In this document: positions 7,426 to 12,250 of the stretch, piece by piece | Layout of the letters: each line of letters begins with the position of its first letter | Numbering within the stretch: position 1 is the first letter of the stretch | IMG/VR virus record: IMGVR_UViG_2667527966_000006 | Length of the DNA: 20,000 bases | Origin: an uncultured virus (IMG/VR IMGVR_UViG_2667527966_000006) | Taxonomy: Duplodnaviria; Heunggongvirae; Uroviricota; Caudoviricetes | Direction: 5' to 3' (one strand) | The notes under the pieces: model-generated | Told to the model about the DNA's origin: nothing | What the model saw: only the letters and a program-made list of their open reading frames with translations | The model's database searches: none | Made by a program: the position numbers and the translations under genes

Positions 7426-8220
7426 ATGGGACAACCAGTAAATATAGCAGGCAAACGTTTTGGAAAGTTGGTTGCACTTAAATATTCCGGTATTTCAAAC
7501 AAACAGGGGCGACTTTGGGATTGCATCTGCGATTGCGGTAACACCTGCCAAGTTAGTTACGGGAAGCTAAATCACGGGGCGACAATATCGTGTGGCTGTG
7601 TCTACAACGCACATCGTCGTAGCATAAAGCCTCATGGTATGAGTAAAACGCCAATTTATCGTATATGGCTGGGTATGCGGGAACGATGTGAAAAAACAAC
7701 CCATCACGCCTATAAGTGGTATGGCGGCCGAGGTATCAAAGTCTGTGAGCGGTGGCAAATCTTTGAAAATTTTTATGCTGACATGGGAGAGCGACCAGAA
7801 GGGATGTCTCTTGATCGCAAAGATGTGAATGGTGACTACGAACCTGAAAATTGCAGATGGGCGACTTTTGAAGAGCAGGCCAATAACACGCGTTCAAACT
7901 TAATTTTGGAGCATATGGGGGAAAAGCTGACTCTCTCACAATGGGCTAAAAGAGCTGGGATTCAGGCATCTACTCTTCACTATCGAATCAAGAAGGGGTG
8001 GCCATTAGGTCGCGCGCTTAACGCCAGCGTCGACACATATGCCAACCGAGATAGTAAGCGTCTGATCGAGTGTCGTGGCAGAACTCAGCGGATTACCGAA
8101 TGGGCAAGAGAGGTTGGCTTGACTGCGACCATTATCTCGCAGCGAATTTTGAGGGGATGGGATGTTGAAGCTGCCATTTTCACACCATCCAAACGACCAG
8201 TAAAAGGAGATAAAAAGTGA
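7426..8220 (+). CDS. Free-standing HNH homing endonuclease
   Basis: N-terminal GKRFGKL..W.C.CDCG and SCGC, HGMSKTPIY.IW..M..RC, YGGRGIKVCERW, SLDRKDVNGDYEPENCRWAT, plus two C-terminal HTH-like repeats. Confidence 0.9.
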   Translation: MGQPVNIAGKRFGKLVALKYSGISNKQGRLWDCICDCGNTCQVSYGKLNHGATISCGCVYNAHRRSIKPHGMSKTPIYRIWLGMRERCEKTTHHAYKWYGGRGIKVCERWQIFENFYADMGERPEGMSLDRKDVNGDYEPENCRWATFEEQANNTRSNLILEHMGEKLTLSQWAKRAGIQASTLHYRIKKGWPLGRALNASVDTYANRDSKRLIECRGRTQRITEWAREVGLTATIISQRILRGWDVEAAIFTPSKRPVKGDKK

Positions 8221-9908: not shown

Positions 9909-10502
9909 ATGATAGCAGCCGAAAAAATCAAAAAGCGAGAGCGAGATGCCTCTCTTCGAGACCTTTGGCGCACACCGAAATGGTTGTTTGTCGCCATTCA
10001 GCGATATCTCGGCATTACGTTTGATGTTGATGTCGCCTGTAACAAAGAAAACGCGCTTCTTCCGAGCTACATAGGTGTGGAACGAGATGCTCTTAAGTCC
10101 AGCTGGGGTGATCCTGGTACGGTGGCCTTTCTCAACCCGCCCTACTCCAAAATAACCCCCTGGATAGAGGCGGCTATCCGAGAGCAAGCGCGTGGTGTAA
10201 CCACCGTTATGCTCATTCCGCAATCGCTCGACACGATGTGGTATGAGCGCGCCACCGAGTGCGCAAACCAGACGGTAGTTCTGTCTGGCGGCCGCGTAGC
10301 GTTCATGGAACCAGACGTCACTTTGGGTTTGGTTGAGGTCAATATCAACCCTGGCGGAAGTATGCTGGTGGTCTTTCGCGGATTCTGTCAGAACGCTGGT
10401 CACTTCATGAATAAAGTCCCGCTGACGGTGATGAAAAGTCTGGGTGGTTACGATCCTGCCAAAGTGATCAGGAAAAAAAGACCACGGAAACAGGCTGCTT
10501 AA
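9909..10502 (+). CDS. Phage-type DNA N6-adenine methyltransferase
   Basis: DLWRTP.W, FDVDVAC, FLNPPYS catalytic motif, VMLIP, GRVAF. ATG at 9909 chosen over TTG at 9897. Confidence 0.88.
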   Translation: MIAAEKIKKRERDASLRDLWRTPKWLFVAIQRYLGITFDVDVACNKENALLPSYIGVERDALKSSWGDPGTVAFLNPPYSKITPWIEAAIREQARGVTTVMLIPQSLDTMWYERATECANQTVVLSGGRVAFMEPDVTLGLVEVNINPGGSMLVVFRGFCQNAGHFMNKVPLTVMKSLGGYDPAKVIRKKRPRKQAA

Positions 10503-10526
10503 TCCGAGTCTGGGAGCGTTTCATAA

Positions 10527-10583
10527 CCTGCTTTCGTATATATAAATAACTAAGTACTAATTATAAACATATACGAAAGCAGG
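10527..10583. repeat. 15-bp perfect inverted repeat enclosing an AT-rich family-A-like site
   Basis: CCTGCTTTCGTATAT (10527-10541) and ATATACGAAAGCAGG (10569-10583), followed by CTTTT. Confidence 0.8.
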
Positions 10584-10699
10584 CTTTTCCTTGTCGATTC
10601 CAGACCACTCCCAGACCGAAACAAGACGCCCAGACCACTCTGGAACCCCTTTCCAGACGCTATAGAATCGTTTTTGTGAAGACAAGTAAGGAAACCATC

Positions 10700-10933
10700 A
10701 TGGCATACCCGACCAACGTTGTAGCGCTCGTTGAGAGCGATTTTTTGGCTAACGCTCGCGAACTCATGAAGGATCGTGAAAAGGCATTCAGTCTTTACGA
10801 GTGGTCACTGAAATGTTTGCACACTGGCGAACACAAAGACCTGATTGAGCAGCTCCTTGGCGAGCTAATCAACGAGGTTTTTGCTCTGCAAGTTCAGCTT
10901 CATGGTAGACAAAATGATCAGTCAGGAAAGTAA
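10700..10933 (+). CDS. Small hypothetical protein (77 aa)
   Basis: ATG at 10700 after AAGGA. Sequence MAYPTNVVALVESDF... looks helical. Confidence 0.75.
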   Translation: MAYPTNVVALVESDFLANARELMKDREKAFSLYEWSLKCLHTGEHKDLIEQLLGELINEVFALQVQLHGRQNDQSGK

Positions 10934-10947
10934 GTAAGTAGTTACCG

Positions 10948-10976
10948 TTTACGATGTATCATAGTGGTTGTAGAAT
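10948..10976 (+). promoter_or_regulatory. Sigma70-like promoter abutting a family-A operator (10930-10949)
   Basis: TTTACG-17 bp-TAGAAT. Predicted start ~10983 coincides with the first hairpin. Confidence 0.6.
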
Positions 10977-10982
10977 GATGTC

Positions 10983-11467
10983 GATTTCGACCTGAGTCGA
11001 AATCTCGGTCTGGTGGGTGGAGGATAGCGTCACTGGCACCAGACTTAAAAAAGCCCACAACCAGCGCAGAACCAGCCCTTTTGGGGTCTGGGGAAGGGGG
11101 AACCAAAGTGGGCAGAGAGAAGGGTCACTTTATGATTGTCGAGTCTGGGTATTTTGAGAGGTTGAATCCAGTACTCCCCTTCATGAAGTGTGGGAAGATC
11201 TCGGTTCTGGGGTGCTGTCATCCATAACTTCCCAAGCCTAAGCTGGCAGTAGACTTAGGTCATAACTTTTCAGGTTATGAAACGACCAGGTTGGTGAGGA
11301 TTTTTTACTCACCTCCCTGGGAGAGTATTACCTGAAAAGACAACCTCTCACTTCGTTCGAGGTGAACTTCACTCACTTCGTTCGCTCAGTTCAGGTAAAA
11401 ATAAACCCGATCTGGGAAGTAATTCATTGAAAATAAATATGTATAAACACGCGTGCGCACACGCGCG
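10983..11467. other. Highly structured non-coding region (candidate ncRNA, primer RNA or replication origin)
   Basis: No credible ORF. Many inverted repeats, GTCTGG repeats, a G-tract, tandem G.A hairpins and an alternating RY tract. Confidence 0.5.
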
Positions 11468-11505
11468 AGGAAAAACGGGCGGCGGCGCACGCTTTGGAGT
11501 TAGAG

Positions 11506-12093
11506 ATGACGACAAGCACACACGCCAGACGAAAAACGGCAGCCGGCCGTGCGCAGCACCAGTATCAAAAACACCCCCGCAAAAACTTCAAAACGCCAGT
11601 TGTCGAATTTAATCCCCGGTTTAAGACGGTCAAAGTTTTCAGTGATGGCTCTTGTCTCAGAAACCCAGGCGGGCCCGGTGGATATGGCATCGTCTTTCAG
11701 TTCCGCGGCGAAGAACGCGAGTTTTCCGACGGCTTCCACAGCACCACAAACAATCGCATGGAGATGATGGGCGCCCTGATAGCTTTGGAACGCCTTAAAT
11801 TCTCCTGCAACGTGATCCTGCACTCAGATAGCCAGTATCTCAAAAATGGTATGACCCTCTGGATGAAGGGGTGGAAACAAAATGGTTGGATCACTGCTGA
11901 CAAGAAGCCTGTTAAGAATGTCGACCTCTGGAAACGACTCGATTTAGCCGCCAGTCGCCACAATGTCAGGTGGAACTGGGTAAAGGGCCACGCCGGGCAT
12001 CGAGAAAACGAAATATGCGACAGGCTGGCCAAGATCGCAGCATATGCGGCAGCGGATACTCCACACAAAAAAGATGCTGGTTTTTTGGTATAA
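11506..12093 (+). CDS. rnhA: Ribonuclease HI with basic N-terminal extension
   Basis: [51 protein letters not shown]. All four DEDD catalytic residues present. Confidence 0.95.
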
Positions 12094-12137
12094 AATGATA
12101 AGTAAGTATTTACCTATCATTTTGTATCATGTATCTT
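12092..12137 (+). promoter_or_regulatory. Family-A operator (extended 32-bp imperfect palindrome) overlapping a promoter -35
   Basis: AAAATGATAAGTAAGTATTTACCTATCATTTT. TTTACC (12109-12114)-17 bp-TATCTT (12132-12137). Confidence 0.65.
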
Positions 12138-12250
12138 ACCCATCGTCAGGATGACAACGTGCTGGTTAGGCACGGTTCCAAGGATGGAACGCAAAAAACG
12201 GCGGCTGGACATTCCAGCCGCAACTCTTTCTGACATTGAAAGGATTTCAA

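Follow-up and report, generated by a model that had tools for sequence, protein, structure and literature searches.

A structured non-coding RNA joined to origin-type DNA hairpins at a candidate lytic origin of SSU5-type phage-plasmids

Lambda-type origins sit in the middle of O-like initiator genes. The origins of phage T4 are promoter-driven R-loops, which are very likely processed by RNase H (PMC3016281). Structured RNA also occurs in plasmid replication regions: the ARRPOF RNA (255 nt, four pseudoknots) maps to a region on which plasmid replication depends (PMC12990946), and we take it as the closest earlier example of a pseudoknotted RNA at such a place. In DNA, only GNA loops give the very stable mini-hairpin, which has been found at the G4 origin, at ssiA of RSF1010, and in the N4 promoters (PMC13037366).

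The stretch of DNA that we analyzed (the window, 20,000 nucleotides of the uncultured virus IMGVR_UViG_2667527966_000006) is part of a Klebsiella phage-plasmid of the SSU5 supergroup, a type widespread among gut bacteria, where Klebsiella, E. coli, Enterobacter, and Salmonella often carry it. Positions 10400-12200 match 780 plasmid records (in 603, the match spans at least 80% of the length), as well as the phages pJN2-26, SSU5, and Cyrano. The local gene order is Dam methylase, ORF77, a non-coding gap, and rnhA. We used pJN2-26, which is 99.7% identical at the locus, as a whole-genome stand-in for the element in the window. It encodes a DnaB-like helicase, a primase, a gp32-like SSB, a 5'-3' exonuclease, a RecA-like recombinase, Pol III alpha, and a ligase, and the Cyrano annotation adds UvsY, an SbcCD-like nuclease, and RuvC; the replication and recombination genes of the SSU5-type family thus form a T4-like set. 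RepB is separate from the element in pJN2-26 and is flanked by eight iteron copies, and a scan of 44 pJN2-26 proteins returned no O-like or RepL lytic initiator.

The structured RNA in the non-coding gap is real and, as far as we could find, new to the literature, and it is joined to an origin-type DNA module. Listings and abstract openings of largely open-access literature on SSU5/pHCM2 origins, phage-plasmid ncRNAs, and the motif itself gave no description, although the supplements of large candidate-RNA screens might include it. The features on the 5' side are as follows.

10508..10617, no strand: long AT-rich dyad preceding ORF77, with 26-bp arms at 10527-10583 and TATAAATA inside
10700..10933, + strand: ORF77, a 77-aa three-helix protein (phrog_5343)
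10930..10949, no strand: degenerate copy of the genome-wide 20-bp palindrome (operator), 5/20 mismatches to the consensus, abutting the -35 box
10948..10976, + strand: sigma70-type promoter TTTACG-17-TAGAAT, spacing kept, spacer variable

The AT-rich dyad has a second copy, in front of the gene that immediately precedes the large terminase, and the dyad is probably a late-type promoter or operator; we take the TATAAATA within it to be a T4 late-promoter box. ORF77 stands directly upstream of the RNA in all 89 distinct upstream contexts, and it is a candidate protein partner or regulator of the RNA. Its predicted model has a pLDDT of 80.5, with no match in Pfam and no fold match in the PDB; the first Atlas match, at 0.90, is probably its own cluster. 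Position 1 of the record PQ492289.1 equals window 10700, exactly the ORF77 start codon, which may be an arbitrary rotation or a hint of a terminus. The operator-like 20-mer overlaps the -35 box by 2 nt, and pJN2-26 has 21 other operator sites at up to 5 mismatches. The promoter that the sequence-only reading placed beside the operator is present, and its -35/17/-10 spacing is kept in 8/8 relatives compared while the spacer sequence changes. Taken alone it is weak, as four promoter-like sites were found against 2.6 in shuffles. No minus-strand promoter matched within the element.

Downstream of this promoter, 10983-11349 is a structured non-coding RNA of about 365 nt on the + strand, with the following parts.

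10983..11349, + strand: structured ncRNA, from alignment, covariation, and expression
10983..11004, + strand: H1, 5' hairpin, free in sequence
11008-15/11037-44, + strand: helix P2
11053-58/11108-13, + strand: helix P3
11121-23/11331-33, + strand: helix P0
11126-32/11184-90, + strand: helix P4
11191-97/11228-34, + strand: helix P5 (P5b is also named as a helix)
11236-42/11254-60, + strand: helix P6
11261-66/11274-79, + strand: helix P7
11286-90/11316-20, + strand: helix P8
11099-104/11203-08, + strand: pseudoknot PKc, covarying, two-sided change in 1/6 pairs
11268-71/11334-37, + strand: pseudoknot PKd, covarying, two-sided change in 2/4 pairs
11156-64/11341-49, + strand: candidate pairing PKe, invariant

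The alignment was reduced from 237 full-length loci to 96 distinct sequences and 29 clusters, from which two near-duplicates were dropped to leave 27 representatives, including eight from a clade that is about 69% identical (pCP102 type). Over these 27 sequences, 98.9% of the cells of the 49 named pairs can pair, and 19/49 pairs change on both sides, compared with 13.1 in shuffles and at most 3 when the partners are slid; the alignment of relatives and covariation check that had been proposed thus favored the fold. Since most of the two-sided changes stem from the single split between two clades, they are not independent events, and P2, P3, P4, and P6 vary within the main clade too. With the gaps moved in the eight divergent rows, P2, P3, P0, P4, P5, P5b, P6, and P7 all show two-sided changes. 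The candidate pairings PKa, PKb, and PKe are invariant and show no compensatory change; in PKe, a single pair is broken in one sequence, and the end pair is A·C in eight. P0 and PKd draw 11331-11337 into the fold, so the structure extends to at least 11337.

The region 10980-11505 folds with a z of -5.4, and 0/100 shuffles were as stable; two adjacent gene controls gave +1.4 and -1.9. Energy alone does not choose the strand (z of -3.7 on the + strand and -4.9 on the - strand, and -1.7 for CP102), and it is the occurrence of G·U in 16 columns against A·C in two that indicates the + strand. The core, 11046-11397, is 94% identical to SSU5, compared with 79% for Dam, 80% for ORF77, and 76% for rnhA. 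No conserved ORF covers the element: the 44-codon frame of CYRAN_81 has no ATG in 10/27 sequences and amounts to 31 or 36 codons from an internal ATG in the remaining 17. The Rfam covariance models, including those of large phage ncRNAs, gave no match at gathering score or E-value thresholds.

Much of what the sequence-only reading had described in this gap holds up. The hairpin at the predicted start near 10983 is H1, formed in 27/27 sequences; the stems listed between 11008 and 11320 are all present in the sequence; and no credible frame precedes rnhA. The structured region of about 520 nt was right as to stable folding, but its extent is revised: the conserved unit is about 10983-11470, and the folded-RNA part ends near 11349, followed by an opposite-strand module. 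The Rfam comparison it had suggested brought no match.

Published RNA-seq data cover the element in Cyrano, where an annotated 135-nt "gene," CYRAN_81, sits within it at about window 11108-11240 and is listed by the authors as a hypothetical moron protein (PMC9928086). CYRAN_81 was 12-fold above the prophage background in uninduced lysogens after overnight growth in LB. In log2(FPKM+5) over 10 samples it reached 6.8-10.35, with 6.4-10.35 for the repressor, 6.6-8.3 for repA, 3.1-5.8 for ORF77, and 2.6-5.0 for rnhA, and the signal dropped 10- to 90-fold from the RNA to rnhA; helicase, primase, and rnhA were near background and ORF77 was low (PMC9928086). The report has stranded profiles, and the strandedness of its FPKM counting is unstated in the text consulted. 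On these data, uninduced lysogens make the RNA as a discrete transcript that does not run on into rnhA, and expression and covariation together uphold the earlier call of a structured transcript. Unless the RNA is simply very stable, its level in lysogens speaks against a tight hold by the neighboring operator, and it makes the description of the locus as repressor-controlled doubtful as stated. The element was absent from three raw-read RNA runs, and one contig run attests to presence only.

The RNA fold closes at 11333-11349, where two template-strand hairpins begin, with an AT-rich stretch after them.

11343..11363, - strand: HP-A, a 5-bp stem, tandem G·A, 2 bp, and a C(GNA)G triloop
11364..11393, - strand: HP-B, repeated tandem G·A pairs and a GAA loop
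11396..11469, no strand: AT-rich stretch with a conserved TCTGGG (AT-rich part 11396-11447), then an alternating purine-pyrimidine tract ending CGCGCGAG, the right border of the conserved unit
11506..12093, + strand: rnhA, RNase HI (PF00075, E 1e-43)

In this second module (11343-11393, minus strand), Watson-Crick steps alternate with tandem G·A pairs, and both hairpins have C(GAA)G caps. The HP-A loop base at 11353 is A, G, T, or C in the divergent clade, while the flanking loop bases are fixed. In the CP102 clade the HP-B stem is replaced with the pairing kept, and its loop is 4 nt. Standard DNA folding parameters, which lack G·A pairs and GNA loops, gave HP-A and HP-B no support. Because of the GNA signature, and because pairing is kept on the minus strand, we take the module to act as single-stranded template DNA. 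The RNA and the hairpin module are never apart in the 237 full-length loci.

HP-A also recurs well outside the family. Pattern scans of viral contigs, together with one further locus (L199), gave at least 140 loci, of which at least 67 belong to the SSU5 family and at least 73 others fall into at least 31 context clusters; 41 of 72 ORFs nearby were scanned against PHROG. Among the matches listed, HP-A lies inside a PHROG-annotated replication-initiator gene, O-like or other, in 8/31 non-SSU5 contexts (L374, L388, L199, L458, L500, L503, L508, and L511, the first two of which are related). Against an assumed background of 2.5-5%, the binomial p for these matches is 7e-7 to 1e-4. Its orientation to transcription is the same as in the window in 8/8 of these listed clusters, and in the contexts printed it comes after repeats and an A-rich tract that resembles the window 5' flank, often with a CGCG tract. 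Among the other 23 of the 31 clusters listed are repeat elements, ORFs without annotation, and non-coding sites, three of these being integrase-terminase gaps; HP-A is therefore enriched at origins and not exclusive to them. Diverse phage initiator genes carry this GNA/tandem-G·A hairpin in their linker region, which makes it a possible general marker of lambda-type origins and one by which phage origins can be searched for.

Two non-coding settings of HP-A have features of their own. In an Acinetobacter phage-plasmid (L517:1650-3000, NZ_CP061518.1), the one exact HP-A copy of the record lies in a large, repeat-rich gap between divergent genes, an origin-like setting. In a cluster of at least 35 loci (L380), HP-A follows an AT-rich dyad and a purine-rich tract in non-coding DNA, and the neighboring ORFs have no PHROG match.

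The 45-nt double hairpin of the window recurs at 91-93% identity in some AT-rich phage contigs, in a non-coding gap whose flanks we presume from their translations to be uvsW with an Sm-like gene and gp55/gp47. These T4-looking contigs (L026:1400-2310, L074:1156-1770, L365, L370, and L372) have a promoter, a conserved non-coding segment of about 240 nt, and GNA/tandem-G·A hairpin pairs, and in L026 two hairpin pairs face outwards around an AT-rich center. The segment between the uvsW/Sm-like and gp55-like genes is a candidate origin. We rejected the regions as structured RNAs, as they are conserved among three sequence types but have z values of -0.2 to +1.0 against shuffles. On another contig (L071:690-1150), some 370 nt of non-coding sequence fold with a z of -2.75 and, together with a sense-strand hairpin pair, stand directly upstream of a gene that we take to be uvsY-like.

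The link to rnhA is frequent but optional. The gene is downstream in 67/93 distinct contexts, and the element is unchanged where unrelated genes, opposite-strand ones included, replace it. Four whole element-bearing records gave no RNase H family match, and the host enzyme could substitute. The suggestion that the element carries its own RNase H thus fits most contexts, but not those four records. In a third, more distant Klebsiella clade, known from 30 records and with a helicase 69% identical, the layout of the slot is retained with a different RNA: a small ORF similar to ORF77, an operator, a promoter, a variable 5' hairpin, and a near-invariant folded region, listed below.

L513:6940-7470 (CP018360.1), also in L519-L521: clade-3 RNA, about 480 nt

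This RNA has a folding z of -5.6, with 12/162 predicted pairs changing on both sides in four sequences, and no Rfam match. The clade-3 match reaches into the rnhA start in 26/30 records, and the slot holds no exact or one-mismatch copy of HP-A. Homology of the window RNA to the clade-3 RNA, the T4-like regions, or L071 was rejected, since HMM, alignment, and covariance model showed none; the window element, the T4-like regions, and L071 have the hairpin module alone in common, and the clade-3 slot is without HP-A. The clade-3 RNA is unrelated and is still mostly followed by rnhA. Across the contexts compared, the slot outlasts both RNA sequence and rnhA, yet rnhA tends to remain near. An unrelated RNA at the same position suggests that position matters.

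The element alone was found in 687 plasmid records at 689 places (684 over at least 80% of its length); it is near-universal in SSU5-type phage-plasmids and single-copy. About 29 records have a close helicase match but no element (714 vs 685), and the one inspected, an E. coli plasmid with IS-interrupted tail genes, carries a deletion in which IS100 takes the place of the whole nrd-to-methylase block, and it persists with RepB; a pMT record has neither element nor helicase, yet is a plasmid. The element is dispensable for plasmid maintenance, and the maintenance origin is elsewhere, given RepB with its iteron copies and the persistence of element-less records as plasmids. Among distant relatives, an Aeromonas phage-plasmid has RepB and iterons at the syntenic position, and in an Acinetobacter phage-plasmid an IS5 gene lies about 360 bp downstream of that position.

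Set beside T4 oriF (uvsY) and oriG, the locus has a similar plan, in that a promoter is followed by an AT-rich stretch, here 11396-11447, and that it serves a helicase/primase/SSB/UvsX/UvsY-type gene set; the RNA-dependent opening and RNase H processing described for T4 are proposed likewise here (PMC3016281). The minimal T4 origins, by contrast, are about 100 bp, and their R-loop formation is not sequence-specific (PMC3016281), whereas the window element keeps a 365-nt pseudoknotted RNA and specific template-strand hairpins. Lambda-type origins share the HP-A hairpin with its orientation, A-rich 5' flank, and frequent CGCG tract; they differ in that the element has no initiator gene and no iteron array, with an RNA in their place. 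The C(GNA)G loops, whose middle base is free to vary, are as in the mini-hairpin signals of the G4 origin, RSF1010 ssiA, and the N4 promoter (PMC13037366), but here they are coupled to an upstream RNA in a double-stranded phage-plasmid. Like ARRPOF, GOLLD, and ROOL, the RNA is a large pseudoknotted ncRNA of a mobile element; unlike them, it has no Rfam match and belongs to a different host group and fold.

The sequence-only reading had likened the locus to a ColE1-type primer. There are resemblances to ColE1 RNA II: a long folded transcript, a sigma70 promoter, G·A/GNA hairpins nearby, and a link to RNase H. Kinship was nevertheless rejected, as the likeness at the level of words was lost when 68/100 shuffles scored as well in local alignment. 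The covariance model of the window RNA had no match in the ColE1 RNA II region, no Rfam RNAI match fell at the element, and Rop was not detected. The ColE1 hairpins are on the RNA-sense (displaced) strand, about 120-170 nt past the origin if its position is as we assumed, while those of the window are on the template strand at the RNA end; the window element is also probably lytic rather than for maintenance. By sequence and layout, then, the element is unlike ColE1, and what stands of the earlier origin reading is the origin-type hairpin signature at the RNA 3' end.

Folded RNA next to phage-origin-type DNA hairpins suggests that an RNA rather than an initiator protein starts lytic genome copying. 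On balance, we lean towards reading 10930-11470 as an RNA-activated lytic origin of SSU5-type phage-plasmids, which would feed the T4-like replisome with no O-like initiator protein. The folded nascent RNA would keep the duplex open at 11330-11400, either through a persistent 3' RNA-DNA hybrid, trimmed to a primer by phage or host RNase HI, or through pairing of RNA loops with the non-template strand. With the duplex open, the template-strand hairpins might hold it so or show where priming is to start, and loading of the phage helicase/primase on the freed + strand would give a rightward fork. In the lysogen, the RNA would be made and the origin would be idle because the replisome genes are silent. 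The RNA loops that pair with 11334-11349 might alternatively pair with the same sequence in non-template DNA, two states that covariation cannot separate.

Several lines of evidence point to this origin. HP-A lies in initiator genes, in one orientation, in the clusters listed above; the GNA signature matches known single-strand mini-hairpins; the T4-like gene set is present without an O-like or RepL initiator among the proteins scanned; plasmid replication is served elsewhere by RepB and iterons, with element-less plasmids persisting; the element is single-copy and near-universal; and rnhA follows the slot in two clades with unrelated RNAs. Other findings weigh against it. Uninduced lysogens have much of the RNA but little more than background signal for helicase, primase, and rnhA, which would fit a function in the lysogen just as well. 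The hairpin motif is generic, with 23 of the 31 contexts listed not shown as initiator genes and several of them repeat elements, and clade 3 has no exact or one-mismatch hairpin copy at its slot. In ColE1 it is the displaced strand that bears the hairpins, and here it is the template strand. GC skew has no switch at the element site, and there are the roughly 29 helicase records without the element. A novel protein initiator is possible, and many proteins of the family have no assigned role.

A broader proposal, which we offer tentatively as a possibility, is a class of "initiator RNA" in which a pseudoknotted transcript has replaced the O-like protein and its iterons. The loops at 11268-71 and 11156-64 would open the duplex in cis on the non-template strand at 11334-11349, the template would fold into lambdoid-type hairpins, and the sister clade, perhaps with certain T4-like phages at their uvsW/uvsY genes, would use unrelated RNAs to the same end. 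The locus is a 500-bp origin candidate with base-level predictions, and if the lytic-origin reading is true, it represents a new variant of RNA-activated origins. Even if that reading fails, there remains an expressed, covariation-supported class of large ncRNA missing from Rfam, which is a good structure target.

As the main rival reading, the same RNA might act in trans as a free large ncRNA, a scaffold, decoy, or regulator like GOLLD, ROOL, or ARRPOF, made in the lysogen and perhaps bound by ORF77, with the 3' hairpins serving as a separate single-strand signal or a transcription stop. Its lysogen expression, on par with the repressor and repA in the data consulted and falling before rnhA, would suit such a role, and a core that is long, hardly varies, and holds several pseudoknots points to compact tertiary folding. 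The pseudoknot pairings could even be intermolecular, as in ARRPOF, ROOL, and GOLLD (PMC12990946). We nevertheless find this reading doubtful, though worth serious attention, as the fold closes flush on origin-type hairpins from which it is never separate in the full-length loci, and as an unrelated RNA at the same position suggests that the place itself counts. A role in packaging or the late stage, as a pac region or packaging RNA, is improbable. The dyad before ORF77 does recur before terminase genes, and one phage record starts at window 10700, but that start is an ATG and may be an arbitrary rotation, and the RNA, served by a sigma70-type promoter of its own, is abundant in lysogens in which ORF77 stays low.

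Readings that tie the RNA to its neighbors or to plasmid upkeep fare worse. A cis leader or attenuator of rnhA, the alternative named by the sequence-only reading, could account for the fall in signal ahead of rnhA and for the frequency of that gene downstream; it is very unlikely, given that the element is unaltered when rnhA is swapped for unrelated genes, even on the opposite strand. We judge a second, ColE1-type plasmid-maintenance replicon just as improbable: expression in lysogens and a size near that of RNA II speak for it, against the missing RNA I and RNA II similarity, the presence of RepB and iterons, and the maintenance of element-less derivatives as plasmids. The layout also recalls the msr-msd arrangement of retrons, with a folded 5' RNA, hairpins stable on the complementary DNA strand, and rnhA adjacent as a possible helper, so that the 3' part would be reverse-transcribed into hairpin DNA. 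This is the most far-fetched of the readings, since the reverse transcriptase family PF00078 (RVT_1) matched in 0/4 element-bearing records (pJN2-26, SSU5, Cyrano, and pCP102) and no conserved inverted repeat was found joining the two ends.

Two further observations concern other parts of these genomes. At window 7426-8220, between a 139-aa gene and the exonuclease, there is a 264-aa ORF that is absent at this position from pJN2-26 and SSU5; by eye it resembles an inserted gene of the homing-endonuclease type, but a Pfam search gave no match. In the Cyrano lysogen data consulted, CYRAN_43 (40268-40822), a hypothetical gene beside the integrase, was 723-fold above the prophage background.
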